Sequence record: NC_100327.1
Length of the DNA: 64,000 bases
DNA from: a phage
Direction: 5' to 3' (one strand)
The notes under the pieces are model-generated. The model was given only the letters and a program-made list of their open reading frames with translations. It was not told the origin of the DNA and made no database searches. Below are positions 20,198-45,640 of the stretch, piece by piece (positions within the stretch are counted from its first letter, which is position 1; every line of letters begins with the position of its first letter). The position numbers and the translations under genes were made by a program.

Positions 20198-22934
20198 CTG
20201 TGATCTGGAACGGGACTCCCATCATTTTAGAAGCTTGCCAGAAGCAATGTACCACCATTTCGCCCACAGGACTCCAGATAAGTTCAAGCTTTCCGTCATC
20301 GTTCAAGATAGGATCGTACACCGTGTTTCCGTCTCTGTCAACCACTTCGTTTCCGTTTTCATCCTTGCGTGCCTTTTTGTACTTATGACCGTCGAACACA
20401 TGAAGTTTGGCCTCCTGCTCTGCCTTAAATGCTTCCAATTCTTCAATTGTGTCGAAGGTGTACACAGTCTTATACTTCGGTGTGTCAGGTACTTGAAGCT
20501 GATATTCGTCATGGTAATAGATAATACGACGAACACCTTCATCGTACCACCCACGCTTCACCATTTGGTGGTGCATAAGTATCCCAACCAAGTCACACAG
20601 CGATGCACCACCATTCTGTTGGTATGCATTAAGTAAAGAGTGTTTAGATCGGGTCCAGATGGCATGACCATCAAAAGAGTAGATAAACTTCTTACCCGTT
20701 GCTTCCCAGAATTTCTCCAGATCCTCTTTGCGCCCCTTAAGACCGGGGTTGGCATCCCAAAGTGCATCGATCACCCTTTGCCCCAACTCTGGGGAGATAT
20801 CCAGCATATCTGCAACTTTATCTTTTTGTGCCCCGTACATAACCCCATACGTGATAGGTTTACCGTCGTTACGAGACACCTCTCTGCCTGCTACTTTTGT
20901 ATATGCCTCAGCATTGTTTTGGTGTGCGTCCCCGTTACTTACAACATCATAGTACAAGCCGTTGTCGAACTCAAAGGCACCCCAAGCCCCGATAAGCTGC
21001 TCTAAGTTGGACCCGTCAATACCGATCTCAAAGTATCCAGGAGGAACACCCCACAAGCTACGCATCTCTTTACCCATAACCACTTTAGGAGATGGTTTAG
21101 GCATGTTTGCACAAATACTGTGTTTCTGTCGGGAAGTGTTTGTTAATCCAGAGCTTTTAGCAGGAAGCTTATGGTCAATCTTCAAACGTGGGTGATTAAG
21201 AAGACCAGTATCAACCTTATCCTCCTTGATTGGATCAAGGACCGATCTGCGGTTTCGCAATGATAACCACAAGACGATATCTTTAGCCATCTCTCCGTTC
21301 AATTTTTCAAGATTCGGACATAGGTGTCCAAACGTATCTTTCAGTTGCGGAGAAGTAATAAGTGCCCTGGCTTTTCTGCGTATTTTCCCGAACACTTCCT
21401 TTTTAATCCTTTCGGAGTTAGGAAAGCTTCGGAACTTGTGCACTGTTGTCTGAAACTTAGCATCAGTTTTGTTCCAGAAGTTGATAATTAGGTCACAATA
21501 CTCTGACTCTAAAAGCTCGTCCATGTATGCATATACTCGTGCATCAACATCTGCATCAGGTAGAGCTTTCTTCTTGCTGTCCTTAGTTACATCCTTAGTT
21601 CTCCACATTGTCGGAAGCCAACCAGCACTGATCAGGTATCGCTTAATGTCGTCCTGATTGCTGATTTTCATAGGTATCTTGCAATCAGGCATTCGCTTCT
21701 GCTGCAGATCACTTATTGCCTGATCCATCAGCTCTTTAGGTAAAGGTTGTGGTGTGGAGGTGCCCTTAATATAACCTCTCAAGAAATCAGCCATCTTGTC
21801 GGGGTCTTTGCAGCCCATCTCTTCGCACCATTTTATCCCCATCTTGCTGACATCTCCTGTGGAGGTAAATGCTCGCTTAGGCGGGGCTTTGAATTCTAAA
21901 GCGCTCATGTCTACAGGATAGCCAAGCTTATCTTTTAACCATTTCCAACCATTATTGGAGATTGTCCCATCTTGGTTAAACGGCTTTTCAGGGAACTTGG
22001 GCCGCTGAGACATTGACAACTCTTTTAAAGGAAGTTGTGGTTCAACACGATCAGCGATCTCTTTCATCCACGCATCGCAGCGGTCACGTAAAGCAATAGC
22101 CCCATCTATGTCGAAATACACACCCTGTCGAGCCTGCAGCTCCATCAGGAAATGCTGCAGCATGCCTCGGCGTAATGCATTCTTCCAGGTAATCTTCTTG
22201 AATCCTTTAGGCTTCTCTTTGGCAGGGTCATACATAAAGTTCTGCATGTCAGATTTGCCGTAGAATACACCTTTTGATTCCGCTACCAACTCTTTCCAGA
22301 GCAACTCCTGGATGATAACGTCCTCGAACACACGATCCACATATTTCCACAGCGGAAGATCGCGCCAGTCATCAATTTGAACTTTCTGGTTACCAAGGGC
22401 GTAGCCCCATGCCATAAGGCCGTGAGGACCAACAGGTTGCATTTTCTTAGTAACCGGGTTGAATACAGCGTCCGGACAACCTTTTGGTAAAGGGCGATCA
22501 GGCCACAAGATTCGGCTCATAGCCAACGTATCAAACAGGTTAACCTGGTGGTCGTTGATAGTCCCCATGCATTTAGGATCACGGAACATATCAAAATGAA
22601 TACCGGATAATCTTTCCATTAGCATAAAGTCATAACTGTAGCAGTTATGGCAGTTCAAAGCTGTTGGTGACCAGTCAGAATTGCCTGTAAGCCAACCTTC
22701 CAACTCCGAAAAATCTGCTATGCGAACTTCAAAATCTTTATAAAGAGTTTTCTTTGCCAGAATGAAGTTCTTAGCCTTTTCTATATCCTCCTCGGAGTAG
22801 TGTGTGCGGTCATTTAGAGGAAGGAACAGCATAAAACGGTTCTTATTCAGCTCTTTAAACAGACCGCAGTGATAATAAAGATCTGGGTCTTCCAAAAGCC
22901 CTGAGGCCTCCAGATCGAAGCACCAATTACTCAT
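20157..22934 (-). CDS. DNA polymerase, family A (T7-like), with N-terminal 3'-5' exonuclease
   Basis: Exo I motif FDLEASG at residues 6-12; motif A GIDGSNLEQL; motif B RNDGKPITYGVMYGA; motif C YYHDEYQLQV. Confidence 0.85.
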   Translation of the reverse strand: MSNWCFDLEASGLLEDPDLYYHCGLFKELNKNRFMLFLPLNDRTHYSEEDIEKAKNFILAKKTLYKDFEVRIADFSELEGWLTGNSDWSPTALNCHNCYSYDFMLMERLSGIHFDMFRDPKCMGTINDHQVNLFDTLAMSRILWPDRPLPKGCPDAVFNPVTKKMQPVGPHGLMAWGYALGNQKVQIDDWRDLPLWKYVDRVFEDVIIQELLWKELVAESKGVFYGKSDMQNFMYDPAKEKPKGFKKITWKNALRRGMLQHFLMELQARQGVYFDIDGAIALRDRCDAWMKEIADRVEPQLPLKELSMSQRPKFPEKPFNQDGTISNNGWKWLKDKLGYPVDMSALEFKAPPKRAFTSTGDVSKMGIKWCEEMGCKDPDKMADFLRGYIKGTSTPQPLPKELMDQAISDLQQKRMPDCKIPMKISNQDDIKRYLISAGWLPTMWRTKDVTKDSKKKALPDADVDARVYAYMDELLESEYCDLIINFWNKTDAKFQTTVHKFRSFPNSERIKKEVFGKIRRKARALITSPQLKDTFGHLCPNLEKLNGEMAKDIVLWLSLRNRRSVLDPIKEDKVDTGLLNHPRLKIDHKLPAKSSGLTNTSRQKHSICANMPKPSPKVVMGKEMRSLWGVPPGYFEIGIDGSNLEQLIGAWGAFEFDNGLYYDVVSNGDAHQNNAEAYTKVAGREVSRNDGKPITYGVMYGAQKDKVADMLDISPELGQRVIDALWDANPGLKGRKEDLEKFWEATGKKFIYSFDGHAIWTRSKHSLLNAYQQNGGASLCDLVGILMHHQMVKRGWYDEGVRRIIYYHDEYQLQVPDTPKYKTVYTFDTIEELEAFKAEQEAKLHVFDGHKYKKARKDENGNEVVDRDGNTVYDPILNDDGKLELIWSPVGEMVVHCFWQASKMMGVPFQITGEYLCGRNWGDCH

Positions 22935-23203
22935 ACTGTCTCCTCCTGTGTCTTCTCAGCATTCTTTCTTGCAGCTATTGCATCGTCCCTGTTCTTGAAG
23001 TATCCAAGGCATTTCCTTTTACCATCTACATAAATTCTGGCTACCCATCTTTCATGGGTTTTATCCCAATTCACCCCTGAGCAACCGCTGGTGTTATTAT
23101 ACTGCACGGCTCTTCCACTCTTGTGCGAAAAACCATTATCTTCGAAGAACTTTCTTGCCCACTCTGCCTCTTCAAAAGTTCTGTACTGGCCTAGCCAGAC
23201 CTT
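22931..23203 (-). pseudogene. Out-of-frame C-terminal AP2-domain extension of the HNH endonuclease gene
   Basis: The -1 frame after the HNH stop translates as KVWLGQYRTFEEAEWARKFFEDNGF ... GVNWDKTHERWVARIYVDGKRKCLGYFKNRDDAIAARKNAE, two AP2-type segments; its TGA overlaps the polymerase ATG as ATGA. Confidence 0.55.
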
Positions 23204-23664
23204 TCACCTACAGAGTCTGTGCCTTGAGCTACCCATGCCTCTCTTTCTTCAGAATAGTGCACCCCGACCCTGCCAGATTTGTTGTTGCTACGAGGTATCT
23301 TGCAACTTTTCTTTTTGTTATCTGTAGGTTCGAGTAGTTGCAAATTTTGAATACTGTTGTCAGCCACACCACCTGTTTCCCTTATCTCCTTGATGTGGTC
23401 AACCTCATACCCTTCCGGTACAGGACCGTTAAACATTTCCCAGATTATAACGTGGGCACCTTTAGTGCAATGCTTTCCTAGACTAACCACAGGCCTGCCA
23501 TCAGCATCTTGCCCCTTGTCAGCTCTGGAGCCTGCTGAAGTTTTAACATATCCTACACCGCTGCCTGCCAGAATGTCTATCTTCCAAAAAAGATTTTGAC
23601 CGTCATACTCCAATATTTCTGACCACAAGTGATTAGCTACACAGTGATCTCTGAACTCGTTCAT
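23191..23664 (-). CDS. HNH homing endonuclease with AP2-type DNA-binding domain start
   Basis: HNH-like block EVDHIKEIRETGGVADNSIQNLQLL; C-terminal SGRVGVHYSEEREAWVAQ begins an AP2 domain that continues out of frame. Confidence 0.7.
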   Translation of the reverse strand: MNEFRDHCVANHLWSEILEYDGQNLFWKIDILAGSGVGYVKTSAGSRADKGQDADGRPVVSLGKHCTKGAHVIIWEMFNGPVPEGYEVDHIKEIRETGGVADNSIQNLQLLEPTDNKKKSCKIPRSNNKSGRVGVHYSEEREAWVAQGTDSVGERSG

Positions 23665-23722
23665 AAAGTGTTCTCCTTAAAGGGGAGGCGGTTGTACTAC
23701 CCCTCCCACTCTTGGTTAAACA

Positions 23723-24838
23723 TTAAAAAGGCGTTTCATCATCCTCAAAACCAGGGACCTGGTCAGAGGATGGATCATCGTACTGGAGGTCTTCCTGCGT
23801 GTCAACAGGCTTAACAGTAGGAGTTACAACCTTATCAGCCACAACCTTGCCCATAGGTGTTTCTACAACTGCATGCTCCTGATCCTCAAACATAGCCTGA
23901 GGTCTCCAAACAACCTCCCCACCTTCTCCGTCTGTAAACATTTGCATTTCTTTGTCCCAGTACCAATTACTGGCATCATGGAACTTACCTGTGTGCGGGT
24001 CCATAACCAAAGTGTCAGCAATACCTAGAGTTTTTGCTGGACGGTTTTTAAGACCTACCAGACGGACACGTCCACGAGAACGATCCACCATTTCTTCGGC
24101 CTCGACACCTATGACTACCCAACTCAACTGTTCAAGCCCAGCCGATCCTCGCAAATTCTCTTTTCGCACAGGATACCAGAAAGGTAATGGGTTACCATCC
24201 TTGTCCTTAGGGGGCACAATCTCTGTACGTTTGAGGTGAGCGATCACCAAGATAAACACGTTAAACTGCTTACAAAACGCAGCCAGTTGGGTCATAGCCA
24301 TGTCCAGTTCTTTTCGCTCATCCTTAACATTAAGCCCTGAAATTACCATGGACAGGTGATCCAGCACAATATAACGACAATGGTACAGGCAAACCATTTG
24401 CTTAAGCTTGGTAATCAACTCGTCCACTGGAATAGACCCGAAATGTTTGAACACTTTGATTTTTCCAGCTTTTGCCCATGATTGGTGAATCTCTGCGTGT
24501 TCTTGATCAGTTAAAAACTGGCTAGGATCTTCAACAAACTCTTTAACATCAAACCCTAACTGGTTTGCATACAAGGAGTTAATTGCTTCCTCTGGGCCCT
24601 CCTCAAGATGAATCATGCATAGACGATCATCCTCTTCGTAATCATCAGCCTTTGGACATGTCGGGTCCATTAGGTATCTTGCAATACAGTGTTCCAGTTT
24701 TTTAGCTACAGTTGTTTTACCGCCTCCTGATGGACCTGTAAGCATTACGAGTGTCCCTTTGTGCAAGCCTTTTAGCATTTTTTGCAGTTTTGGGAACTCT
24801 GCGCTGATATCTACCCCGTTGGAAGTCTTTTTCCGCAA
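23723..24838 (-). CDS. replicative DNA helicase (DnaB/T7 gp4 helicase-domain type) with acidic C-terminal tail
   Basis: Walker A LTGPSGGGKTT; YIVLDHLSMV block; ends DDETPF. Confidence 0.8.
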   Translation of the reverse strand: MRKKTSNGVDISAEFPKLQKMLKGLHKGTLVMLTGPSGGGKTTVAKKLEHCIARYLMDPTCPKADDYEEDDRLCMIHLEEGPEEAINSLYANQLGFDVKEFVEDPSQFLTDQEHAEIHQSWAKAGKIKVFKHFGSIPVDELITKLKQMVCLYHCRYIVLDHLSMVISGLNVKDERKELDMAMTQLAAFCKQFNVFILVIAHLKRTEIVPPKDKDGNPLPFWYPVRKENLRGSAGLEQLSWVVIGVEAEEMVDRSRGRVRLVGLKNRPAKTLGIADTLVMDPHTGKFHDASNWYWDKEMQMFTDGEGGEVVWRPQAMFEDQEHAVVETPMGKVVADKVVTPTVKPVDTQEDLQYDDPSSDQVPGFEDDETPF

Positions 24839-24858: not shown

Positions 24859-25701
24859 CTAAATCCGATACAGCATCCGGTACATACTTACAGGATGCCG
24901 GAACATGTTTACAATATCTTCCAGCTTTTTAGCCTTCAGCATGTCACGGATATCTTTTACACCGTCAGGATCGTTTACTTCACCAGGGTACTCTACGTGG
25001 TAAACGTTATCAGCCATCAAAAATGCTGCGATATTGTGCGTAGCCTCAACACCTTTAATGACGTGTTTTTGCTTCTCTACCTCGTTAGCTGCATCGTTAT
25101 CCATTGCCAGCACAACTGTTCCATAGCTACGGATAAACTTCTCATTGTTTGCAAAAGTATCTACTGCGTTTGCACATCCGCAGTTAATTCCAACAAAAGG
25201 TAGGCAGGGTTTTCCTGCCAGATCACCACCGTTGATAACTGCATCGATCCCGTCCTGTACCTCTTTAGCCCACTGCTTCACCTTTGCCGGGGCTTTAGCG
25301 TTGGTGAGAATCCCTTTTACTTGTATCTGATATGCAGCCTGCCATGCTGCAATAACATCACCTTCTCCCTCGCAAACGTTAATCTGCTTACGGTTGTTGG
25401 AAGATGCACACAGCTTTTGACCAAACATCTGGGAGTTAGCCTTTACGATGCCAACAACGGAGAAATGGCCCCTTTGCTCTTTAGGAATCGTCCAGTCGCG
25501 CTTTTTGAAACCGGACAGATTTCCGTAGCGGTCGTAATATGGGAAATATGTTGCAGTGACTGTCACACCGTCTTCTTGGGACAATGCTGATCGCACACCA
25601 AAATATTGTGCAGCCATCAGACCGATATTTTGTTGTGGGACAGGGACAATTTTAGTATTTTCTAAAACAGTCTCTACAGTTTCAAACTTCTTTTTCATCA
25701 C
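24859..25701 (-). CDS. DNA primase (TOPRIM domain, T7 gp4 primase-like)
   Basis: TOPRIM motifs NVCEGEGD and VLAMDNDAAN; directly upstream of the helicase; no zinc-binding domain seen. Confidence 0.75.
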   Translation of the reverse strand: MMKKKFETVETVLENTKIVPVPQQNIGLMAAQYFGVRSALSQEDGVTVTATYFPYYDRYGNLSGFKKRDWTIPKEQRGHFSVVGIVKANSQMFGQKLCASSNNRKQINVCEGEGDVIAAWQAAYQIQVKGILTNAKAPAKVKQWAKEVQDGIDAVINGGDLAGKPCLPFVGINCGCANAVDTFANNEKFIRSYGTVVLAMDNDAANEVEKQKHVIKGVEATHNIAAFLMADNVYHVEYPGEVNDPDGVKDIRDMLKAKKLEDIVNMFRHPVSMYRMLYRI

Positions 25702-25790: not shown

Positions 25791-26585
25791 TTACTTCCCA
25801 TTAATTCTGCTCCTTACTACAGGCTCGTTTGCTAAGAATACAGCTTTTGCCCAGCCACGTGGTGTGAGGCTTCGGATCATCTTCGTTCTTGCACTCTTCC
25901 CACCCAGCTTGGCGTGTTGCATGGAATACCCGCTAACCGCGTCAACTATTTGCGGGACAGGTTTTGTGGCCGGGATTATAAATCCATTACCTATCCAGCC
26001 GCAAGTTATTTTTGGATAGGCATCACGTGGAGCTATAAATTCAGGAAACCAGGGGTTTACATCATCCTCCGGTAAATACCCGCCATAGTCAGAAGGATGA
26101 AAACGGTAATCAGGTTTGCGCCACAGTGTGGACATAACACCAACAGGATTCTCTACATGCCACGGGCAATCGTAAATCTCTCCCAGCTCTTCCGCAACCC
26201 GAGCATCCTTTACAGCATTAATTTGGATCAAAGGATCCTTAGCCAGCTTTTTCTTAAAATGTGCAGCACCTGATACCGCTAAATGCGTGCACGGAGGAAA
26301 TGCAAGAATAAAGTCTGGAGCTGGATACATGCAAAAAGTTTCCTGAGGGAACCATGGGTCAATCCAATAATCCACATAGTGAATGTTAGGATGATCGGTT
26401 ATCACCTCTGCATAACTGCCGTGGTCAGCACCTTCTGCATTAAAGCACAGGCACAGGTACCCAGCTTTTGCCCAGTCAATAACTGCACCACCAGACCCGT
26501 CAAATAGACTCCACACAACACCTTTGTGGTAGTGTTCTTTGTAGATGAATTTCAATTTGCTGTCTCCTAATGCAAAAAGCCCCAC
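25791..26585 (-). CDS. DNA cytosine-C5 methyltransferase-like protein (short, non-canonical; start uncertain)
   Basis: Motif I LFDGSGG, motif IV FPPCT (PCQ-like), motif VI HVENPVG; only about 264 aa; an RBS AGGAGA plus TTG at about 26557 is an alternative start. Confidence 0.55.
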   Translation of the reverse strand: MGLFALGDSKLKFIYKEHYHKGVVWSLFDGSGGAVIDWAKAGYLCLCFNAEGADHGSYAEVITDHPNIHYVDYWIDPWFPQETFCMYPAPDFILAFPPCTHLAVSGAAHFKKKLAKDPLIQINAVKDARVAEELGEIYDCPWHVENPVGVMSTLWRKPDYRFHPSDYGGYLPEDDVNPWFPEFIAPRDAYPKITCGWIGNGFIIPATKPVPQIVDAVSGYSMQHAKLGGKSARTKMIRSLTPRGWAKAVFLANEPVVRSRINGK

Positions 26586-27090
26586 CCTTTCGGGCAGGGC
26601 CTAGTGTTAAACCCGGATACCTATTGTTATACTCGGTGGATACCAATGTCAAATCTAAATTTAAAATTTCTTGCATCTCATAATATGCGTCCAGGGTTAG
26701 ATACATTTCCCCATCCTTTTCTACATACTTGTCCAAGTGCTTGAGGCATTTCGGATAACTATCAAGTGCAGCTTTCAGGCACTCAAACTCTGTGCTGTTG
26801 ATGAATCCTTCCATCTTGGCTACCCGTTCTGGGGTAATGATAGCACTGTAGTGAGATTTAGCTTCCTGAATGCAATGGGTCCAAGCATCAACCTTCTCTT
26901 CGAAAAGTCCAAAGAACTTCTTTTTGGTGAGCTTCAGATTCTTTAAGTGCTTAAGCACTCGGTTGCCGATTACAGCCACATCACGAAACTTAAGAATCAC
27001 TTTGTCGATATCCTCGCGACCTATTTTCACAAAACAGGCCTTACACATTTCAGGGGAGGAATAACCAACTTTCCACATAAAATCTGACAT
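26500..27090 (-). CDS. hypothetical protein (196 aa; 3' end overlaps the terminator hairpin)
   Basis: ORF-track ORF; the C-terminal tail looks low-quality, so the true stop may differ. Confidence 0.45.
   Translation of the reverse strand: MSDFMWKVGYSSPEMCKACFVKIGREDIDKVILKFRDVAVIGNRVLKHLKNLKLTKKKFFGLFEEKVDAWTHCIQEAKSHYSAIITPERVAKMEGFINSTEFECLKAALDSYPKCLKHLDKYVEKDGEMYLTLDAYYEMQEILNLDLTLVSTEYNNRYPGLTLGPARKGGAFCIRRQQIEIHLQRTLPQRCCVESI
26570..26602 (-). terminator. Terminator-like hairpin, near-identical copy of 15690-15725
   Basis: Plus-strand gccccaccctttcgggcaggg; U-run then RBS AGGAGA on the minus strand. Confidence 0.4.
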
Positions 27091-27102
27091 ACCACCTTCT
27101 CC

Positions 27103-27498
27103 TTATTCCTTAAAAGCTATGATATCATAGGAACTTGCAGATGATTCTGGTGAAGAATGACTCCAGTCCAGGTCATCAGAATAGTCAGCGTACTGTGCGC
27201 CACTACGCAGTTTGTATTTTACCCACTTACCTGGTGCAGGGTTTTCACCACCTTCCCATACTTCCCAGCCTTCTGGCAGGCCGTCCTGAGCGTAGTCATC
27301 CACCTCACTAATGATCTTAGGGTTTGGCACCAAGATCCCCGCAGGCTCTTCCTTCCGGATAAGTGTCCACACAGCGTATGTGTCTGAGCAGGCGCATGAT
27401 AGCAAAGTATATCCACTATTCAGAACTTCTGCAAGCTCTTTTTCAGCATCTTCCAATTTGGTTAAGTGGTATTGGATAATCTTCACACCTGTAATCAT
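27103..27498 (-). CDS. hypothetical protein (131 aa)
   Basis: ORF-track ORF. Confidence 0.45.
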   Translation of the reverse strand: MITGVKIIQYHLTKLEDAEKELAEVLNSGYTLLSCACSDTYAVWTLIRKEEPAGILVPNPKIISEVDDYAQDGLPEGWEVWEGGENPAPGKWVKYKLRSGAQYADYSDDLDWSHSSPESSASSYDIIAFKE

Positions 27499-27803
27499 CA
27501 GAAACCTCCCACTTCTTCAGCAAATGCAGCTGCTGTCGTCGCTGCATCCAGATAGGACTCTAGTTCACGGGCTGCACGTTTGTAAATTGAGTGGCGCATA
27601 TCGTTTGGCAGTTGGTGGGAGTCCACCTCTTCACCGTTGTGGTAAACATGCACATCGGTGATTTGTCTAAATCCGTAACAGTCAACATCAGAATCCCGGC
27701 ACTCCGGATCTGGCAACTGAACAACTGCCTGAGCTTCCACAGTAAACATATCGTCAAGTTCGAAATCGATTTCAAAAGTGTATGGTTTATAACGTTTCAT
27801 CAT
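27498..27803 (-). CDS. hypothetical protein (101 aa)
   Basis: ORF-track ORF. Confidence 0.45.
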   Translation of the reverse strand: MMKRYKPYTFEIDFELDDMFTVEAQAVVQLPDPECRDSDVDCYGFRQITDVHVYHNGEEVDSHQLPNDMRHSIYKRAARELESYLDAATTAAAFAEEVGGF

Positions 27804-27816
27804 TTGATTGTACTCT

Positions 27817-29142
27817 TTATTGATCAGAATTATCTTTCGTAATTAAGGTCTGGGTAAGTTTGTAATAGCGGAAGCCACCGCCACCTTGCCAGCTTGCAGA
27901 CTTAGAAATACCACCTTGATCTTCACCATCAATCACTTTTTGCAAGCGAGGGATAATATGGGTATGACAATGATCACCCAGTTCGATCAAGATCCAACGT
28001 CTTTTCATCTTGTGGGCTACAGCAGCAGTAGTTCCCGAACCGCCGAATGAATCCAATACCAAATCACCTTCTCGCGTACACATTTCGAGAATCCGCTTCA
28101 AAAGCGCTTCTGGTTTTTTTCCATTTTTGAAACTAACGCCGCCTTCATTTGCTATCCCATTCCAACTAATGTCTGTCCAAACATCAGTTATTAGTTCCGC
28201 AGGTTGCATCTCACCGTCAATTTCCAAAAGCCTGTTGGAGTAAAAGACCATTTGCCTACCATTTGCGATATAAAATCCTTCAACATCCTCATTCGGATGT
28301 ACATAAACCTTATCCCTATCTTTCTTTGACTTCTCGATAGTTTCTTTTCTCTTTATTTTAGCGCCACCACCAATTGCAACAGATTGAAATACACGTTCTG
28401 CATTATCAATTGCGAATTGTGCTAATTCATCATCGAATGTGTCAGGCAGTTTTTTCTTAGCTTCTTTTGCATCTTTATAGCCATTGGCCTTTGCAAACGC
28501 ATCGGCAATACCGCACCACGTCCAATTTTTATAATGGTCATCCGGGTTTAATAGGTATTTGTTATATCCTGTATCATACCCTTTAGTTATATAGATTTTG
28601 TTAAGCGGTTTCTGGTTGCGATCTTTTGCATATACAAGCAAAAAGTTTGCTGTGGAGAAAACTGTGGCTCCTGTTGCCTTAAATCCCGAAGGGGAATTTG
28701 TGGTCATCGATATGGTATTTAACTGATTTGCACGACCAAAAATCTCGTCCATCAAAACTTTTAAATACGCCATTTCGCAACCATCTAAGTGAACGAATAT
28801 TACCCCATCATCACTCAGAAGATTACGAATTATTTCTAACCTATCCCTCATTAAGCCCAGCCAAATGGAATGCTCCAGACTATCATCGTAGTGCTCAAAA
28901 GCCCTTCCGGTATTGAATGGTGGGTCTATGTAAACACACTTCACTTTGCCTGCATACTCTTGCTCTAGCGCCTTCAATGCTAATAAGTTATCTCCAAAAA
29001 TCAGCTTATTATCAAAAATATCGTTTTCGGTAACTTTCTGGCTGTGGTAAGACTTGCTCGAATCTTCTAACAAAGTGTGCGGCTCTAGCTTTTTGCGCTC
29101 GTTTTTACCTATCCAGGTGAGTTCTAATTTGGTTTTGCTCAT
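27817..29142 (-). CDS. DNA methyltransferase, beta-class amino-MTase (probably N6-adenine; type III Mod-like)
   Basis: Motif IV VYIDPPFNTG near the N-terminus and motif I VLDSFGGSGTT near the C-terminus; no restriction partner seen. Confidence 0.8.
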   Translation of the reverse strand: MSKTKLELTWIGKNERKKLEPHTLLEDSSKSYHSQKVTENDIFDNKLIFGDNLLALKALEQEYAGKVKCVYIDPPFNTGRAFEHYDDSLEHSIWLGLMRDRLEIIRNLLSDDGVIFVHLDGCEMAYLKVLMDEIFGRANQLNTISMTTNSPSGFKATGATVFSTANFLLVYAKDRNQKPLNKIYITKGYDTGYNKYLLNPDDHYKNWTWCGIADAFAKANGYKDAKEAKKKLPDTFDDELAQFAIDNAERVFQSVAIGGGAKIKRKETIEKSKKDRDKVYVHPNEDVEGFYIANGRQMVFYSNRLLEIDGEMQPAELITDVWTDISWNGIANEGGVSFKNGKKPEALLKRILEMCTREGDLVLDSFGGSGTTAAVAHKMKRRWILIELGDHCHTHIIPRLQKVIDGEDQGGISKSASWQGGGGFRYYKLTQTLITKDNSDQ

Positions 29143-29203: not shown

Positions 29204-29545
29204 CTACTGAAGGTCTTCACAGTCAAGCTCAAAAAGAATCAAACTGTGCATGCCTGCAGAGAGATCGACACACCCTGCAACAATAAGGGTCTGATAGTAA
29301 GGTTCAGCACCCTCGATGTCTTCGTTAAAATCCACAACAAGATAGTCACCTTTGTTAAAGGTGTATTTGTCCGATGTAAACGCAAAACCTGCCCAGTCCC
29401 CTACTGCAGGATCTTTATCAGTCACCTTTGTCAGCAGTAGATCTTTTTCACGAGATCTTTTAGTAAAATCGTGAATCACAACATCCTTCTCTTCAGGAGT
29501 TGGATTGCCACACACGTAGTTAACTATATTTCTCCACAAACTCAT
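29204..29545 (-). CDS. hypothetical protein (113 aa)
   Basis: ORF-track ORF. Confidence 0.45.
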   Translation of the reverse strand: MSLWRNIVNYVCGNPTPEEKDVVIHDFTKRSREKDLLLTKVTDKDPAVGDWAGFAFTSDKYTFNKGDYLVVDFNEDIEGAEPYYQTLIVAGCVDLSAGMHSLILFELDCEDLQ

Positions 29546-37834: not shown

Positions 37835-38730
37835 ACCCTCGCATAAATTAAACTTGTATCAGTATACTTCTTTAATGGGTAAATATCCTGTCCATAGATG
37901 CAATCATTAAACACCTCATCTACCCAAAGGCTACACTTATATCCCATCATTTCTAAAACACCCATCTCTTCTTCGGTAAACTTATCACCGCTCTTGCAAG
38001 ATGTCAATACCTCATTCTGAACTCTTGCTACCTCGAAGCGGTTATTGGCAATATCGCTATTGGCGATCAAATACTCACCTAGAGGGTGTGCGGCATTAAA
38101 GATGCACAGTGGACGGCTGACGTAATAGTCTCCAGGTGTATAAAAATTGTTGAGGTCTTTCACTAGAACATTCTTATCAGTCACTTCATTTATAACATCA
38201 TGCATATCGCACATCTTTATATGTTTGAGGATTCCATCCCCCATCACAAAATAAAAACTTGCTGAAACACTTTCGGCATAGATCTTACTAGATCCGTTGT
38301 AGTTGTATTTTACTCGGATGCTAACGGGGGTTTTTCCTGTCGCGTTAGCCATCATCCAAAGAAATGGCAGCTCATACTTCTCCTCTGAGGAAACAAAAGG
38401 TGAGGTAGCCAGAGATCGAAAACCTCCAGAGAAGTTGAAAGTTACAGAACCGCTCCGGCGGTATGATACCGCGTATTCTACTTTTATATCGACATACCCA
38501 TTGGAATAGGTGTGTCCTTCATTATCTAAATATGTCCACTTATCAGACCCAGATACCAATCTACGCTCAATAACCTTCATCACTATAGGAATTAATGGGT
38601 TGGTACAAACCGCTTTTGAAGTAGCTTTATCATCTAAAGCCTCGTAAATTGCAGAAAGGATGTCCCCAGCTGAAAGATTGGTTGTTATGTCCTGTTTCCA
38701 CCGCGTACTAAAACTGTTAAGATTTGCCAT
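37831..38730 (-). CDS. hypothetical protein (299 aa) in an AT-rich segment
   Basis: ORF-track ORF; RBS AGGAG; own promoter at 38771-38799. Confidence 0.5.
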   Translation of the reverse strand: MANLNSFSTRWKQDITTNLSAGDILSAIYEALDDKATSKAVCTNPLIPIVMKVIERRLVSGSDKWTYLDNEGHTYSNGYVDIKVEYAVSYRRSGSVTFNFSGGFRSLATSPFVSSEEKYELPFLWMMANATGKTPVSIRVKYNYNGSSKIYAESVSASFYFVMGDGILKHIKMCDMHDVINEVTDKNVLVKDLNNFYTPGDYYVSRPLCIFNAAHPLGEYLIANSDIANNRFEVARVQNEVLTSCKSGDKFTEEEMGVLEMMGYKCSLWVDEVFNDCIYGQDIYPLKKYTDTSLIYARV

Positions 38731-38770
38731 AAGTAAGTGCTCCTATGTTAGTTTTCTTTCGAATGGGTGC

Positions 38771-38799
38771 ACTATATTGTGGAGTTAGAGTAAAGTCAA
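38771..38799 (-). promoter_or_regulatory. sigma70-type promoter (TTGACT, 17 bp, TATAGT), divergent partner
   Basis: Read on the minus strand upstream of 37831-38730. Confidence 0.5.
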
Positions 38800-38812
38800 C
38801 ACGTTTTTGATG

Positions 38813-38841
38813 TTGACATCTGTTGAGACAATTGATAAGAT
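38813..38841 (+). promoter_or_regulatory. sigma70-type promoter (TTGACA, 17 bp, TAAGAT) for the plus-strand accessory block
   Basis: Plus-strand hexamers back-to-back with the minus-strand promoter. Confidence 0.45.
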
Positions 38842-38872
38842 TTCTTCACTTACAGAGCACGAGAGACGACTC

Positions 38873-39850
38873 ATGAATCTTGAAAAATATTATACACCAG
38901 AAGAGTTAGAGCGCTTGCTCAAAAAATATAGACGCAAACAGAATAACGCACGGAAACGAGATATAGAGTTCGACCTGTCATGGGAAGAATACCTCCTATT
39001 TGGTAAAAAACTTTTAGGAGATGGAGTATGCGACTATACCCTTATACCTTTTGACATGCACACAGATGAAAACGGGCTGGGGAATCCTTTCTACCCATCC
39101 CTGGAGCGGATAGATGATGAAGGTCCTTATGCGGTTGATAACTGTTGTGTGGTGGGATTGAGATGCAACTCTCTAAAGGACTGTCTGGTAGATAAAAAGA
39201 CTGCAGTCTTGATTAAAGACGAAACTGATCGAAAAATTGTCCAGCAGATGATGCTCCACCTGAGCGAAGAGCGTATGGAGAAATTGAAAGGTGATTATAC
39301 TTTTGAAGATTTCATCTTGCAATATGGAACGGAAGAGGATAAACTAGCACTCTTTGACGAAGAAGAGGAGGAAGATATGCTACCGATGTCTAAAGTTACT
39401 TATCGTGCACCCAAGAAGCACATTTCCGACATTGTAAACGAGCCTATCACAGAAGAGATTGAAGAAATGACGCAACAGGTGCATGAAGAGGAAAAAGAGA
39501 CTCAGGAGGTCGAAGAGGAGCTTACAGAAGAGGTTCCTGCACTACCTGATGATGTTGAGATTGCCAAAGCTTACACTTTCTATTGTCAAACGTTCTACGA
39601 TGTAGGTATGAAAGTTGATCTGTCGTTCAGCCAATTTAAGAGTTCGTATATTCGCAAATGCTGTGCTTTAACTGGTGAACGTCTTGGAGCTGGACTTAAA
39701 CCCCTGTTGGTGACCGACTGGAATAAAGGTTTCACTAAAGGAAACTTTATGGTAGTATCTCCGATTATGGAGAAAGCTATGACAGATCTTATGAAGACCA
39801 CCCGCATGACAATGACCGAGTTGGCAGGTATTTTCAAACACGTTAAATAA
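38873..39850 (+). CDS. hypothetical protein; the track ORF starts at 38807 but the ATG at 38873 is more likely
   Basis: The track N-terminus overlaps promoter hexamers; Cys cluster C..CC..C in the N-terminal half; internal MSKVTYRA coincides with the inverted repeat. Confidence 0.45.
   Translation: MNLEKYYTPEELERLLKKYRRKQNNARKRDIEFDLSWEEYLLFGKKLLGDGVCDYTLIPFDMHTDENGLGNPFYPSLERIDDEGPYAVDNCCVVGLRCNSLKDCLVDKKTAVLIKDETDRKIVQQMMLHLSEERMEKLKGDYTFEDFILQYGTEEDKLALFDEEEEEDMLPMSKVTYRAPKKHISDIVNEPITEEIEEMTQQVHEEEKETQEVEEELTEEVPALPDDVEIAKAYTFYCQTFYDVGMKVDLSFSQFKSSYIRKCCALTGERLGAGLKPLLVTDWNKGFTKGNFMVVSPIMEKAMTDLMKTTRMTMTELAGIFKHVK
39381..39409. repeat. 29-bp perfect inverted repeat, right copy
   Basis: Exact reverse complement of 37519-37547. 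Confidence 0.7.
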
Positions 39851-39862
39851 TGACAGGGGCCA

Positions 39863-41344
39863 ATGGCCCCTTCTGGAGTTTTAATGGATAGCAGAAGTTC
39901 AGAAATCATTGCCTCGCAGAAAGATGATGCCCTGAGAATGTTGCAGGCTGCACGTATGTATCTCCTTGAAAAGCTGCCGTTTTATGGCACACTACTGTCA
40001 GGGTTGCAGTTCGTAGAAAACCACACATGGTGCTCCACCATGGCAACCGACCATAAACGCATCTATTACAGTCCTGAGTTCATTATGGGATTGGCTGATG
40101 AACGCAAGGCTATTCTTAAGGCTTCTCTAACTGACGAGCAGTTTGAGATGGCTGAAGTTTTCTATTCCCCAAAATCTGTGAAAGAGGTGGCCTTCCTTCT
40201 GTCACATGAGGTGGGGCATATTATCTGTGATCACCTAGTCCGTGGTAAAAGCTTTGAGCCGGAACTGTTCAATATTGCTTGTGATCACGTTATCAACACA
40301 GGCCTTGTGGTTGACTTTAGCAAACCTCCTTGTGTTTTCTTCCCGAAGGGGAAAAGCACTACGTTCCTGAAAGGTAAGCCTTTTGGCTTCTTAGCCAGCT
40401 GCTACTGCGACATGAAGTTTCATGGATGGATTGCTGAGAACGTTTATGCAGTTCTTGATAAGCAAAGAGATCAGAATAACGGTAAAAGTAAGAACGGTAA
40501 AGGTGAGAACTCTCAAAGTGATAAGCGACAAACCGATGATCGCATGAGTGGGAACGGTGGCACCAGTGATAATCTTGGAAAGGCTATGGGGTATGATCAG
40601 CCACAACCTGTAATCAGCCAATCTGATAAAGATCAGGCCATGCAGGACTCTGGTGATATGCTGGAGGCAGCAATGCAAGCGTCCGGAGGCCGTTGCCCTG
40701 AGGCGGTGCGTGAGTTTGTCAAGAACAGAGGTAAGCCTGTAATCAACTATATAGACATCATTAAGCAACGTATGTTGTCTAAAAGAAAGGCCGAACTGAC
40801 CTACAGAAAACCTGGTCGCCGATCTGGGTCTTTGACCAGCACAATGCGAAAAGTTGGGGCTATAAACAAGAACCAGCACGTTATTGTTCCTGGTCGTAAT
40901 CCGGAAAACACTATAGATATTGTGGTGGCTTTAGACGTTTCTGGCTCGATCTCTCAAAGAACTTTAAAGAAAATGTTCAATGAAATCACCGGATTGTGCA
41001 ATCTGTATAAAGAGTTTAAGGTTACAATGTTCTGTTGGTCAACTGAGGTTGGAGAGGTTAAAGTATACACTCGCGGCAACATAGACGAGATGGTCAACTA
41101 TGAGGTCCACTCAACATGGGGCACAACAGCTGCTTGCGTGTTCGAGTATCTGGATGCCAACATACCTAATGCAAAAGATGTCATCGTCCTGACCGACCTA
41201 TACTTTGAGCATAACTTTGAACAAAAGGTTGTTGACAACAAGTGGAAAAAGTACGATACTCTATGGGTCCTCACTGAGGGGTATAATAAAAATTATATCC
41301 CGAGCTTTGGGAAAACTGTGGAATTAATCGAGTACGCTAAGTAA
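39863..41344 (+). CDS. putative zinc metallopeptidase (HExxH) with C-terminal von Willebrand factor A domain
   Basis: HEVGH in the N-terminal half; MIDAS-like DVSGSIS in the C-terminal half. Confidence 0.6.
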   Translation: MAPSGVLMDSRSSEIIASQKDDALRMLQAARMYLLEKLPFYGTLLSGLQFVENHTWCSTMATDHKRIYYSPEFIMGLADERKAILKASLTDEQFEMAEVFYSPKSVKEVAFLLSHEVGHIICDHLVRGKSFEPELFNIACDHVINTGLVVDFSKPPCVFFPKGKSTTFLKGKPFGFLASCYCDMKFHGWIAENVYAVLDKQRDQNNGKSKNGKGENSQSDKRQTDDRMSGNGGTSDNLGKAMGYDQPQPVISQSDKDQAMQDSGDMLEAAMQASGGRCPEAVREFVKNRGKPVINYIDIIKQRMLSKRKAELTYRKPGRRSGSLTSTMRKVGAINKNQHVIVPGRNPENTIDIVVALDVSGSISQRTLKKMFNEITGLCNLYKEFKVTMFCWSTEVGEVKVYTRGNIDEMVNYEVHSTWGTTAACVFEYLDANIPNAKDVIVLTDLYFEHNFEQKVVDNKWKKYDTLWVLTEGYNKNYIPSFGKTVELIEYAK

Positions 41345-41359
41345 GAGAGGAGGTTATTT

Positions 41360-41623
41360 ATGGCAACAGAGTTAAAATTTGCATCAAACCGTAAAACTAA
41401 GAAGTATCTGTCCTCAGTAGCTCCAGGCACTGTGGTGATGTTTGTTGATGAACTTGGGGATGTGAATACAGCACTTGTTGTAAAATCACATCCTGCAAAC
41501 ATATATGTTGGGGTATTTGACCTGTTCAGAAAGGTGTTTGTAGAACTGCCTCACAGTTTGGTTGTTACAGAAATGGATGCCTGCATAGAAATTCTTGGCG
41601 AAGTTATGGTGGAGGAACAATAA
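41360..41623 (+). CDS. small protein (87 aa), tandem paralog 1 of 4
   Basis: Aligns with the next gene (MAT..F.S..K.KK....GTVV....FDL....VTE.D..I.ILGE); stop/start overlap TAATG. Confidence 0.5.
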   Translation: MATELKFASNRKTKKYLSSVAPGTVVMFVDELGDVNTALVVKSHPANIYVGVFDLFRKVFVELPHSLVVTEMDACIEILGEVMVEEQ

Positions 41624-41886
41624 TGGCTACCAGCATTGTATTCAATTCTAAGGTGAAGAACAAAAAGCGTGCAGACAGTTTTCCGTGTGGGACCGTGGTA
41701 AGTTGCGACGGAGACGGCATTCAAAACATAGTTATGATTGTCAAAACAGGAGAACATTGTGTGTGGGGGTTCGATTTAGAAAATAATGAGTTGTACGATC
41801 TGCCGCCAAACATGAAAGTTACAGAGCTTGACACCAAAATTACCATCCTTGGAGAGACAAGCTATTCAAAAGAAGGAGGAGAATAA
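41623..41886 (+). CDS. small protein (87 aa), tandem paralog 2 of 4
   Basis: Same length and conserved blocks as paralog 1; translationally coupled. Confidence 0.5.
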   Translation: MATSIVFNSKVKNKKRADSFPCGTVVSCDGDGIQNIVMIVKTGEHCVWGFDLENNELYDLPPNMKVTELDTKITILGETSYSKEGGE

Positions 41887-42149
41887 TGACCACAAAAATC
41901 ACTATCGCAGAACCGAAAGCTAACACTCAGCCTATCGAAAAGTTTAAGTGCGGTGAGGTGGTAACATTCACACCAGATAATGAAGATGCTAAGATTTTCG
42001 CAATGGTCACAGCTGAGTGGATGTGTGACAACACCACACAGGTTCTGCGTTTTGACACCTATCTTACCGATGAAATCAGGAACGACAAGATTGTGACTGG
42101 TGTGGATACTGAGATTGTTTTCTACAAGAGCTTTTTAGAGGGTTTCTGA
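41886..42149 (+). CDS. small protein (87 aa), tandem paralog 3 of 4 (more divergent)
   Basis: Same length; CGEVV block; coupled start. Confidence 0.45.
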   Translation: MTTKITIAEPKANTQPIEKFKCGEVVTFTPDNEDAKIFAMVTAEWMCDNTTQVLRFDTYLTDEIRNDKIVTGVDTEIVFYKSFLEGF

Positions 42150-42150
42150 T

Positions 42151-42384
42151 ATGGCAAAAATTAGAAAATTATCTAGCAATCAGGTTGTGAAAGACTTCGA
42201 ATCTGGAGAGATTCTTTATGTTCGTGATGCAGATGACGAAGGTGAAGATCTCGTTATGTTGGTGGGGCACGCTGAGGACGGATGCATCCAAGCTGTTTTT
42301 CTTGAAACAGCTATGGTGCACTGGATAGAGCTGGACCTGAAAGCACGAAAACCTAAAGCAGAAATCCTGATTTACGAAGATTAA
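42151..42384 (+). CDS. small acidic protein (77 aa), probable divergent paralog 4
   Basis: Similar size and GEIL/LVMLV blocks; adjacent. Confidence 0.4.
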   Translation: MAKIRKLSSNQVVKDFESGEILYVRDADDEGEDLVMLVGHAEDGCIQAVFLETAMVHWIELDLKARKPKAEILIYED

Positions 42385-42400
42385 CAAAAAGGAGATAGCC

Positions 42401-42850
42401 GTGTTGAGCAAACGTGAATGCGACAGCATTAGCCTGAATTCTTATAAGAAACAATGGTTTGGGGTGGAAGTTTGCCGACTGCGGCTAGGCTCCTACCTGA
42501 ACTTCGTTTATTATGAGAGTGACAGTCGTATCGTTTCTTATGAAGTGTTCTACACTAAGAACACATTCGAACTGCGCCGTAAAGTAGATGGCGGGAGAAC
42601 TACCACCCAGAATAATTGGGAAACTATTCTGCCTCCAGATGTTATAGGAAGTCCCCTGAATGTATCTGAAGATGAAAATCTTATGGTTCATGCTATGATG
42701 GGACTTGACAGCTTAGAGCTGGCAATCTATGATATGTCCATCGAAGCAGTTAAGCTGGACTACATCGAAAACACTTTAGAGGAAGGTATCAAGAAGTTTC
42801 TCAGTGAGAAATTAAAAGACCACTTTCATAAGGAGCTATATCTGTTATGA
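42401..42850 (+). CDS. hypothetical protein (149 aa)
   Basis: ORF-track ORF. Confidence 0.45.
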   Translation: MLSKRECDSISLNSYKKQWFGVEVCRLRLGSYLNFVYYESDSRIVSYEVFYTKNTFELRRKVDGGRTTTQNNWETILPPDVIGSPLNVSEDENLMVHAMMGLDSLELAIYDMSIEAVKLDYIENTLEEGIKKFLSEKLKDHFHKELYLL

Positions 42851-43092
42851 AGACCCGTAAAGAACGTAACAAAATTTTACCTGGAGCTCTCGAACACCTG
42901 ATGAAGTGCAGATCTATTTGGCACTCTGCCAAGGAAGGGCAGAAGGTGGTTGTGGTTAGTGACAATACCAACCCGTTTGGAGATTATACCACCATGATGG
43001 CCCCATATGTCCGTGATGGCGTTGTAGAAGTGGTCCCTTACAACGGTTTGCATGAACGGCACTTTGAAAGCGCTTTGCTAGTGGAGCTATAG
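42847..43092 (+). CDS. hypothetical protein (81 aa)
   Basis: ORF-track ORF. Confidence 0.45.
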   Translation: MKTRKERNKILPGALEHLMKCRSIWHSAKEGQKVVVVSDNTNPFGDYTTMMAPYVRDGVVEVVPYNGLHERHFESALLVEL

Positions 43093-43094
43093 TC

Positions 43095-43661
43095 ATGGCG
43101 GTCAATGTGGCTTACAACACAGGAAAGCTTGACAGAGACATTGGGTGTCTTGTCCTTTCAGATACAGAAGAGTATTGGGGTTATGGGTTGCTGTCAGACC
43201 CACACCCGAGCAACCTTGTATCAACAGTGCTATACCGCTACGACCCTGTGCCAACGGTACACGACAAAGACATTCACGACCTTCGGATCAAGTGTCTGGA
43301 AGATCTGCTGAACAATGGTTGCAACGATCTGCGGGTAGCCAAGGAGAAGCTTACAAACATTCACAAAGAGGAAGTGATGAGTACCCTCAGTAAAAGATCA
43401 GTGCACAAAAAGATGATGCTGAACTTTGCAATGGGTATCTACATGGATGGGTATAAGGGAGGGGATCCGATCCTCAAGCTTCGCTGCCCGACACTGTGGG
43501 AAAGAGTGGTTGACAGTAAGGACGGTACTGCCCTGCTCGAACTCCACACTGCAGGTTGGATTTGGCGGTATGTAGACGGATACCCTCTGTGGGCATGTGG
43601 ACCTGGGGAATTTGTTGACAGACCTAGCGCGGTGGTGGACTTACTATTGCAGTTTGAATAA
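43095..43661 (+). CDS. hypothetical protein (188 aa)
   Basis: ORF-track ORF. Confidence 0.45.
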   Translation: MAVNVAYNTGKLDRDIGCLVLSDTEEYWGYGLLSDPHPSNLVSTVLYRYDPVPTVHDKDIHDLRIKCLEDLLNNGCNDLRVAKEKLTNIHKEEVMSTLSKRSVHKKMMLNFAMGIYMDGYKGGDPILKLRCPTLWERVVDSKDGTALLELHTAGWIWRYVDGYPLWACGPGEFVDRPSAVVDLLLQFE

Positions 43662-45637: not shown

Positions 45638-45640
45638 GAA

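Follow-up and report, generated by a model that had tools for sequence, protein, structure and literature searches.

Two orphan DNA methyltransferases in the replication module of an rV5-like phage: a probable captured Type III Mod and a compact C5 enzyme

Introduction

Stand-alone DNA methyltransferases occur in phages; those of T2 and T4 (Dam) and of the Bacillus phages SPR and phi3T (C5 methylases) are thought to pre-empt host restriction. When two such genes lie close together in one genome, three questions arise: what each enzyme is, where it came from and what it does for the phage. This is the case in the 64,000-nucleotide stretch of sequence record NC_100327.1 analysed here (the window), in which an original prediction had recognised a beta-class amino-methyltransferase (gene A) and a short C5-methyltransferase-like protein (gene B), proposing that they may be anti-restriction methylases or that another substrate, or another chemistry, may be that of the short enzyme. 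In this report, we address these questions for each gene and weigh the alternatives.

Results

Two orphan genes in a replication module

The source phage is, judging from its sequence, an rV5-like Vequintavirus infecting E. coli. Phages nimi and CarlMeissner (Bas48) show 99.9% nucleotide identity to this region, and both methyltransferase proteins are identical to their Bas48 counterparts. The two predicted open reading frames (ORFs) were found where they had been placed (Table 1), on the minus strand and within the replication module, flanked by genes for rIIA, rIIB, a Dda/Pif1-like helicase, small hypothetical proteins, a primase/helicase and DNA polymerase. As originally predicted, there is no restriction partner: no res gene (SF2 helicase-nuclease) adjoins gene A in the phage, no nuclease or Res is annotated across ~50 kb of Bas48, whose record is near-identical, and the three small ORFs between genes A and B, among which we sought partner subunits, gave only weak PHROG labels. 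Gene content thus identifies both as stand-alone (orphan) DNA methyltransferases. The observation is real and ordinary, since both genes are already annotated in nimi and CarlMeissner and in >100 Vequintavirus genomes. Neither methylation of rV5 nor truncated phage Mods turned up in a literature search. For 21 sites, CCWGG, GATC, CAGCAG and AGACC among them, observed counts in the window were compared with Markov expectation; none was informatively depleted, the observed-to-expected ratios lying at 0.75-1.05 except for GGATCC (7 observed vs 14.7 expected).

Table 1. Features of the two methyltransferase genes and the span between them (window coordinates; residue numbers refer to the encoded proteins).
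Feature	Coordinates	Strand	Basis
Gene A, 441-aa orphan beta-class DNA methyltransferase, Type III Mod without C-terminal domain	27817..29142	-	
Gene A motif IV DPPF, aa 73-76, catalytic motif	28915..28926	-	read from sequence
Gene A motif I FGGSGTT, aa 366-372, AdoMet binding	28027..28047	-	read from sequence
Gene A truncation point: last homologous residues TLITKD, then NSDQ-stop	27808..27849	-	nucleotide alignment with NZ_CP027591
Three small unrelated ORFs within the span	27498-27803, 27103-27498, 26500-27090		
Terminator-like hairpin (26602-26577), then AGGAGA ribosome-binding site (26567-26562), ahead of the gene B TTG	26556..26602	-	
Gene B, 254-aa compact C5 cytosine DNA methyltransferase (most likely), PHROG 757 family	25791..26555	-	
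Gene B motif I FDGSGG, aa 18-23	26487..26504	-	paired by hhalign with E. coli Dcm FAGIGG
Gene B motif IV FPPCT, aa 86-90, predicted catalytic Cys89	26286..26300	-	sequence
Gene B motif VI ENP, aa 135-137 (Glu135)	26145..26153	-	family alignment
Gene B C-terminal conserved block IRSLTPRGWAKAV, motif IX/X-like, opens last helix	25839..25877	-	conservation and model

Gene A is a Type III Mod cut short after its catalytic domain

In gene A, motif IV is N-terminal to motif I and the recognition domain sits between the two, an order typical of the beta class. D73, P74 and P75 in the former motif and F366, G368, S369, G370, T371 and T372 in the latter are invariant among 41 homologues. Pfam N6_N4_Mtase (PF01555) matches aa 67-393 at 1.5e-42 over profile positions 1-216 of 221, with a score of 146.5 bits (curated cut-off, 26.7), and the structural model matches beta-class enzymes, so the class originally assigned holds. 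PADLOC MTase_III (PDLC03636) matches at 2e-199, leaving model positions 444-575 unmatched. By both sequence and fold, the product is a Type III Mod.

The origin of this Mod can be traced closely. Over the N-terminal ~437 residues of a chromosomal E. coli Mod of 568 aa (WP_024226319), the protein shows 95% identity, and the genes share 93.5-94.5% nucleotide identity over a block (window 29155-27808) running from 13 nt upstream of the ATG to 9 nt past the stop. Over the approximate target-recognition region (residues ~180-330, by EcoP15I analogy), phage and E. coli proteins differ at 3 of ~150 residues. The E. coli homologue is followed by a 912-aa Type III Res (WP_024226320; PADLOC REase_III, 8.9e-191; Pfam ResIII), the cognate locus being C7A05_RS28560-28580 in strain 2014C-3011, and E. 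coli relatives of gene A are always accompanied by an SNF2 helicase. PADLOC labels the locus Type III MTase and REase with a DrmD-like SNF2; we name it here the SNF2-associated Type III system. It is present in ~0.5% of E. coli genomes, cattle and human-stool isolates among them, and the SNF2-Mod-Res arrangement recurs in Acinetobacter and Aeribacillus. Two existing names were considered for the locus and rejected: ARMADA II has a different gene set, and MANTIS/Gao_RL has an AAA+ ATPase instead of the SNF2 helicase.

The end of the phage protein arose from a frameshifting 11-bp deletion relative to E. coli mod. It aligns to residue ~D520 of EcoP15I Mod, between the catalytic domain (to 516) and the C-terminal domain (539-644). 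Gene A therefore keeps the N-terminal, catalytic and target-recognition domains and is without the C-terminal domain (~127 residues). In EcoP15I Mod, the N-terminal and catalytic domains serve dimerisation and the C-terminal domain of ModA binds Res (PMC4490356). Since the catalytic domain of ModA likewise contacts Res (PMC4490356), the loss of Res binding by gene A is not certain.

This truncated form is conserved. All 86 Vequintavirus copies found by tblastn (86/86) cover the full 441-aa query, the end point is the same in all six sequences compared directly, and a dN/dS of 0.10-0.16 indicates purifying selection. Values of dS between phage and E. coli (0.19-0.21) exceed those within phages (<=0.14), and the next phage relatives are at most 41% identical. 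A candidate second phage capture of a ~440-aa Mod homologue, in P0320, was rejected, as it is a decayed bacterial locus beside a TnsA-like gene.

Gene B belongs to a large family of compact C5 methyltransferases

Gene B had been given a length of about 264 aa, corresponding to the longer ORF (25791-26585) that opens at GTG 26585. This codon falls within a terminator-like hairpin, at a position matching that of a terminator annotated in phage EdH4, while TTG 26555 is the start in all annotated relatives and lies 6 nt after an AGGAGA ribosome-binding site. These signals make a 254-aa protein from TTG 26555 most likely, and we number residues on this form.

The three motifs that the original prediction had read in this protein, motif I, a PCT variant of motif IV and motif VI, are all present. 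Position 89 is Cys in 97 of 99 family representatives, and the E, N and P of the ENP motif occur in 98, 92 and 97 of them, respectively. Near the C terminus, R228, P232, G234 and A238 each show conservation of 85% or more in the same set, and the last helix spans residues 233-253 in the AlphaFold model; we take block IRSLTPRGWAKAV to be the candidate equivalent of GRSWSVPV in DNMT3A. At the putative motif VIII, K182-x-T184 stands instead of RxR, within the family block Y-x-K-K/I-T-C-x-W.

In sequence, the enzyme is as non-canonical as had been claimed. Searches of Pfam (E up to 0.1), NCBIfam and PADLOC returned no match, so that PF00145 misses gene B, and only 3 of its 120 closest relatives have a precomputed PF00145 match. 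The family profile has no significant match to solved or canonical C5 methyltransferases (E 0.2-1; 0.2-0.6 for solved ones); the comparison with PDB sequences and hhalign against E. coli Dcm align gene B over motifs I-VI only (E ~0.2). PHROG 757, 'DNA methyltransferase', matches at 5e-87. Because Pfam, NCBIfam and PADLOC miss it, the family is under-annotated, with many records reading 'hypothetical protein'. On sequence clustering, it is a very large phage and prophage family (3,546 clusters; 1,018 representatives at 50% identity; 1,503 phage records), with proteins mostly of 210-260 aa. Gene B shows a dN/dS of 0.00-0.03, indicating very strong purifying selection.

The AlphaFold model (pLDDT 94.1, pTM 0.92) has as its best structural matches C5 DNA methyltransferases, namely the catalytic domains of DNMT3A/B. 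It contains no separate recognition (small) domain of standard size between motifs VIII and IX; the stretch from the motif VIII strand to the C-terminal helices has ~38 residues (190-227), mostly loop, and the view that the protein is too short for a standard target-recognition domain stands on this model. Most likely, gene B encodes a genuine compact C5 methyltransferase of DNMT3-like fold. With 11-16% identity to the DNMT3A and DNMT3B catalytic domains, the likeness is one of fold, not of membership, and gene B differs from them in having no regulatory domains and a family-specific conserved insertion at residues 154-183. Compared with M.HhaI, M.HaeIII and E. coli Dcm (PF00145), it has PCT for PCQ and ENP for ENV, appears to be without QxRxR, and lacks the large recognition domain of canonical C5 methyltransferases. 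The 'Dcm-like' label notwithstanding, it is not derived from host dcm.

A characterised relative is the Dcm of phage K42. The 236-aa proteins of KarlJaspers (Bas06) and egaa have C82, E128, K175 and K176 exactly as stated for the K42 enzyme, and gene B is 54% identical to them (E 2e-86). Family, PHROG and length class (236 vs 254 aa) are shared, as is the location beside replication helicases. The FPPC Cys (C89, equivalent to C82), the ENP Glu (E135, equivalent to E128) and the first Lys (K182) match as well. There are also differences: K42/KarlJaspers is a Drexlerviridae siphovirus whereas gene B comes from a myovirus, and K176, one of four residues mutated in the K42 study, is Ile183 in gene B, at a position variable across the family. 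The loop at residues 196-216 is of GYSMQH type as opposed to the DNPGW type of K42, so the specificity of gene B may differ. The KarlJaspers-type enzyme is reported to raise 5-methylcytosine (5mC) in the msDNA of retron Ec86 and to trigger the retron; wild-type K42 Dcm raised msDNA 5mC and a catalytic mutant did not, and in LC-MS the product and a 5mC standard elute together (bioRxiv 10.1101/2023.08.16.553469). In the same work, K42 phages losing the gene B homologue were viable escapers, and the experiments used dcm+ MG1655, CCWGG specificity being inferred, not mapped (bioRxiv 10.1101/2023.08.16.553469).

Discussion

The reading that we consider likely is that genes A and B encode independent, functional stand-alone methyltransferases, one a captured host Mod and the other a compact C5 enzyme. 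Gene A would be a ~1.35-kb 5' fragment of an E. coli Type III mod, captured once by the ancestor of the genus. Its product would form a Mod2 dimer and methylate one adenine (N6) in the host system's own short asymmetric site, so that the replicating phage DNA would resist this one Type III system and, while methylating, no restriction-competent complex would be built. From its relationship to E. coli mod, gene A is most likely a Mod taken over from the host, which methylates the phage's DNA against a single Type III system. It differs from a Type III Mod such as EcoP15I Mod or WP_024226319 in having no Res gene and no C-terminal domain and in being carried by a virulent phage. It differs from the phage orphan methyltransferases mentioned at the outset in that it can be traced to a specific, near-identical host system and has itself lost the Res-docking domain. 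Methylation by the SNF2-associated system may, by analogy with MANTIS methylation, require partners.

How broad could this protection be? The proposal that the two genes are anti-restriction methylases survives for gene A in a narrow form, which is well supported by its being a fragment of a mod that has its Res in E. coli, and fails as general protection. The BASEL study describes Vequintavirinae as 'exceptionally susceptible' to the restriction systems that it tested, with high sensitivity to EcoRI, EcoRV, EcoKI, EcoP1-type systems and others in the panel (PMC8594841), so any protection by these methylases must be narrow. In gene B, Cys89 would attack C6 of a flipped cytosine, Glu135 would protonate N3, and the methyl group of AdoMet would pass to C5. 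The benefit is probably to shield the phage from some cytosine-sensitive restriction enzyme; CCWGG as the target is a mere guess carried over from the 54%-identical homologue.

A more far-reaching reading is possible, and we hold it tentatively. Gene A would be both a pre-methylator and a former of Res-blind heterodimers, that is, a dual 'stolen and disarmed' anti-restriction device aimed at one SNF2-associated Type III system and fixed throughout the genus Vequintavirus, which has shed the Res-docking domain and kept the recognition, catalytic and dimerisation domains. The gene B family, for its part, might recognise DNA without a recognition domain, possibly via DNMT3-like oligomerisation. 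That gene A is instead, or besides, mainly a decoy, poisoning Mod2Res assembly by heterodimerising with host Mod or by occupying recognition sites, is unlikely. Its near-identity to host Mod, the selective maintenance of the truncated form, the retention of the domains through which EcoP15I dimerises and the loss of the one binding Res would all suit a decoy. However, the AdoMet-binding and catalytic motifs, which would be superfluous in a pure decoy, are all intact and conserved.

We find it improbable that one or both enzymes act in the physiology of the phage itself (marking progeny DNA, or setting when replication, packaging or transcription takes place) and not in counter-defence. The location of both genes amid helicases, primase and polymerase, the very strong purifying selection on gene B and the general restriction sensitivity of these phages are consistent with such a role. 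Against it, the near-identity of gene A to a restriction Mod, recognition domain included, is hard to square with housekeeping, and K42 phages without the gene B homologue are viable as escapers.

It is more improbable still that gene B transfers a group other than methyl, such as the carboxymethyl of Cx-SAM in the manner of CmoX, or that it targets RNA or single-stranded DNA. CmoX has an SPPC motif and an Arg (R350) at the position of M.HhaI N304; gene B has FPPC, and its Arg233, at the start of the last helix, is a candidate equivalent of R350. DNMT3 enzymes, which use AdoMet and are the closest structures to gene B, also have an Arg in motif X. CmoX (a 372-residue chain) is matched by E. 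coli Dcm (phmmer E 1.5e-10) and is not matched by the profile of the short family. A CmoX-type gene would be expected to have cmoA and/or a cmoY-type ligase gene as neighbours; no cmoA or amide ligase is annotated in ~50 kb around gene B in Bas48. The absence of such neighbours there, the DNMT3-like fold, the conserved Cys and Glu and the homologue whose product co-elutes with 5mC argue against the different substrate or chemistry entertained in the original prediction. Finally, that gene A is an inactive remnant, as the frameshifting deletion might suggest, is scarcely credible for an ORF that is full-length in all 86 Vequintavirus records, with a shared end point in the six sequences compared directly, all motifs, a complete Pfam domain and a dN/dS well below 1.

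For the field, there is little new in the genes themselves, as both are already annotated and one member of the short family has been characterised. For the biology of rV5-like phages, two points emerge. First, these phages come equipped with a key that fits one specific Type III system of E. coli, of relevance to phage therapy and typing, and gene A may help account for host-range differences among E. coli strains with the SNF2-associated Type III system. Second, gene B-type enzymes have a known cost in that they can trigger retron Ec86, making gene B a candidate trigger of Ec86-type immunity in rV5-like phages, and its family shows that a working C5 methyltransferase is possible at ~230-250 residues.

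Results

Both methyltransferase ORFs lie on the minus strand exactly where the original prediction had placed them, with one change to the start of gene B (see table). The surrounding 5-kb region is 99.9% identical at the nucleotide level to Escherichia phages nimi and CarlMeissner (Bas48) and 96-98% identical to rV5 and ~100 other Vequintavirus genomes. The gene order in Bas48 is rIIA, rIIB, DNA helicase, hypothetical, "putative N6 adenine methyltransferase", three hypotheticals, "Dcm-like C5 cytosine methyltransferase", primase/helicase and DNA polymerase. Since genes A and B are identical to these annotated methyltransferases (dN = dS = 0), both were already public, under essentially the labels proposed originally. 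Their description as orphans is borne out, as neither profile searches nor the Bas48 annotation (~50 kb) revealed a nuclease or Res gene nearby.

Features of the methyltransferase region and other parts of the window
Feature	Position	Strand	Length	Details
Gene A	27817-29142	minus	441 aa	DPPF, aa 73-76; FGGSGTT, aa 366-372
Gene B	25791-26555	minus	254 aa (most likely)	FDGSGG, 18-23; FPPCT, 86-90; ENP, 135-137 (254-aa numbering)
Small conserved ORF flanking gene A	27498-27803	minus
Small conserved ORF flanking gene A	27103-27498	minus
Small conserved ORF flanking gene A	29204-29545	minus
Sigma-70-like promoter match	26652-26577 region	minus		TTGACA-18-AACAAT; corresponds to promoter P231 annotated in rV5
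Terminator-like hairpin	26602-26577
Single-base indels relative to Bas48	24890, 25684, 26627
Primase/helicase ORF	23723-24838
Primase/helicase ORF	24859-25701
Insertion	22896-23660		~765 bp	between DNA polymerase and primase/helicase
HNH homing-endonuclease ORF	23191-23664	minus
Dense SNP cluster	23666-24028
GC and AT skew sign switch	~38000-46000			coincides with a plus-strand gene block inside an otherwise minus-strand region

Gene A, which encodes a beta-class methyltransferase, gives a full-length Pfam N6_N4_Mtase match (1.5e-42) and is a Type III methyltransferase according to PADLOC (2e-199), although only positions 2-443 of the 575 in the model are covered. Relative to E. coli mod, an 11-bp deletion beyond codon ~437 creates its stop (TLITKD followed by NSDQ-stop), and its last homologous residue aligns with ~D520 of EcoP15I Mod. 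In EcoP15I Mod, the catalytic domain extends to residue 516 and the C-terminal domain occupies 539-644; dimerisation uses the N-terminal and catalytic domains, Mod2 can methylate on its own, and ModA contacts Res extensively through its C-terminal domain (PMC4490356). Gene A therefore keeps the parts for dimerisation, DNA recognition and methylation, without the Res-docking domain, and is most likely a host Type III Mod in disarmed form. By the same domain logic the truncated protein could act as a decoy or dominant negative, but conservation of the catalytic motifs speaks for activity and makes such a role rather improbable. In the recognition region (residues ~180-330, approximate, by analogy with EcoP15I), gene A and the E. 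coli protein differ at only 3 of ~150 positions, so the two would be expected to share a target site.

This E. coli protein, which a protein search retrieved as a 567-aa chromosomal "site-specific DNA-methyltransferase", is 95% identical across the entire gene A protein; hundreds of other bacterial relatives (560-600 aa) show 58-76% identity. At the DNA level, a homologue occurs in 29 of 5,426 complete E. coli genomes (80-95% identity overall, 94.5% in the best-matching records), and the homology is sharply bounded, from 13 nt upstream of the gene A ATG to 9 nt past its stop. In the phage collection, gene A was found at ≥92% identity in no genus but Vequintavirus, where 86 records each cover the whole 441-aa query; the next-nearest phage relatives show ≤41% identity. 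Among six phages its dN/dS is 0.10-0.16, and the E. coli copy falls outside the phage genes as an outgroup (dS 0.19-0.21 versus ≤0.14 within the phages). This distribution, selection and outgroup position fit a single capture, presumably maintained by selection thereafter. The 2006 rV5 record already notes similarity of the gene A homologue [quoted passage not shown]. In the searched literature we found no mention of its link to an E. coli Type III system that is nearly identical.

In strain 2014C-3011, the homologue lies in a defence island at tRNA-Sec (NZ_CP027591 5058170-5077485). The genes of this island encode a small HTH protein (mad1-like), an SNF2/DrmD-like helicase, AbiD and one hypothetical protein, together with Mod (568 aa) and a Type III Res of 912 aa (PADLOC REase_III, 8.9e-191; Pfam ResIII). 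The SNF2-Mod-Res core is also present in Acinetobacter, with other cargo (AAA_21 and DUF4276) between SNF2 and Mod, and in Aeribacillus, with none there; these three genes may form a system of their own, open to inserted cargo. A 442-aa Mod homologue (64% identity) on metagenome contigs belongs to a decayed bacterial locus, between a truncated SNF2 gene on its upstream side and a TnsA-like gene directly downstream; transposon disruption therefore also shortens Mod at the domain boundary seen in gene A.

Gene B was originally given 264 aa from GTG 26585. This codon falls within a terminator-like hairpin and all annotated relatives start at TTG 26555, which is preceded by an AGGAGA ribosome-binding site, so the shorter form is most likely. 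The P231-like promoter is just upstream of this strong hairpin and ribosome-binding site.

Gene B has no match in Pfam, NCBIfam or PADLOC, and it matches PHROG 757 "DNA methyltransferase" (5e-87). A 77-sequence family profile reaches DNMT2 and M.HaeIII only at E = 0.2-0.6, across motifs I-IV; hhalign with E. coli Dcm gives E = 0.21, with motifs I, IV and VI nonetheless correctly placed. Clustering at 90% identity divides the family into 3,546 clusters (1,018 representatives at 50%); almost all members have 210-260 aa, and the family occurs in 1,503 phage records from Escherichia, Klebsiella and Salmonella phages, many of them Drexlerviridae. Conserved across 99 diverse representatives are L17, D19, G22, W28, G32, D/N39, F86-P87-P88-C89-T90, G96, K103, E135-N136-P137, R146, F152, P154, D178, Y180, K182, T184, W187, P195, R228, P232, G234 and A238. 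The confident AlphaFold model (pLDDT 94.1, pTM 0.92) has the secondary-structure order of a C5 catalytic domain, with a conserved family-specific insertion (154-183) and, as anticipated, only ~38 residues (190-227) in the place of a recognition domain. Gene B is most likely a real though compact C5 methyltransferase. Among Vequintavirus genomes its dN/dS is 0.00-0.03 (0-3 non-synonymous versus 11-30 synonymous changes), clearly pointing to a functional protein.

Several side observations concern the region and its records. The 101-aa protein flanking gene A (PHROG 4240) weakly matches phrog_1573, labelled "DNA methyltransferase" (2.4e-6), and the 131-aa and 113-aa proteins weakly match PHROGs labelled "DNA ligase"; these labels are probably unreliable. 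Relative to Bas48, two indels break up the essential primase/helicase gene, which is one 692-aa CDS in relatives, leaving two ORFs plus a short N-terminal piece, while the third, an extra T in the -10 region of the P231-like promoter (26627), lengthens the ORF232 homologue from 160 to 196 aa, hence its overlap with gene B. Each indel falls in a run of 2-3 identical bases, so all three are probably sequencing or assembly errors. The HNH insertion, present in WalterGehring, FFH2 and JES2013 but not in Bas48, adjoins the SNP cluster and has 96.6% identity on its opposite side, which looks like a co-conversion tract. Records MG0656xx (Campylobacter phages C12, C2, A141, ...) name Campylobacter jejuni as the host but share 96-98% identity with Vequintavirus genomes from E. 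coli; their host labels are likely wrong, or the samples were contaminated.

Discussion

The closest experimental parallel for gene B is Dcm of K42, a KarlJaspers (Bas06) relative whose escapers of retron Ec86 have a disrupted 711-bp dcm gene. This protein is reported to carry C82, E128, K175 and K176, to be toxic only when Ec86 is present and, in wild-type but not mutant form, to yield high 5mC in msDNA by LC-MS; mutating the CCTGG site in msDNA reportedly abolishes defence. These experiments used a dcm+ host, and their target site is an inferred rather than a mapped one (bioRxiv 10.1101/2023.08.16.553469). The 711-bp genes of egaa and KarlJaspers encode 236-aa proteins with exactly these four residues, to which gene B is 54% identical (E = 4e-86 and 2e-86, respectively). 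Gene B shares the equivalents C89, E135 and K182, but has I183 at the K176 position. Its variable loop is of the GYSMQH rather than the DNPGW type, so its specificity may differ.

The original suggestion of a different chemistry for the short enzyme finds little favour here. Cx-SAM-dependent chemistry as in CmoX (PMC12783734) would be in line with the PPC motif of the family and a conserved Arg where the last helix starts, but it is very improbable because the K42 homologue reportedly makes 5mC, the Bas48 annotation (~50 kb) has no cmoA or ligase gene nearby, and the best structural matches of gene B are DNMT3 enzymes, which use AdoMet.

As for an anti-restriction role, the BASEL study described Vequintavirinae as "exceptionally susceptible" to its set of restriction systems and apparently without effective protection (PMC8594841). 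This fits narrow, sequence-specific protection rather than broad anti-restriction. No site avoidance is evident within the window. A purely physiological role and decay are both unlikely, being disfavoured by the identity with a host system and the selection data.

The original observation was thus correct and its interpretation partly right, and genes A and B are already annotated features of known kinds. The insight gained is incremental: the truncated Mod is given an exact host origin and a domain logic, and the "non-canonical" short enzyme is placed in a characterised DNMT3-like phage family.
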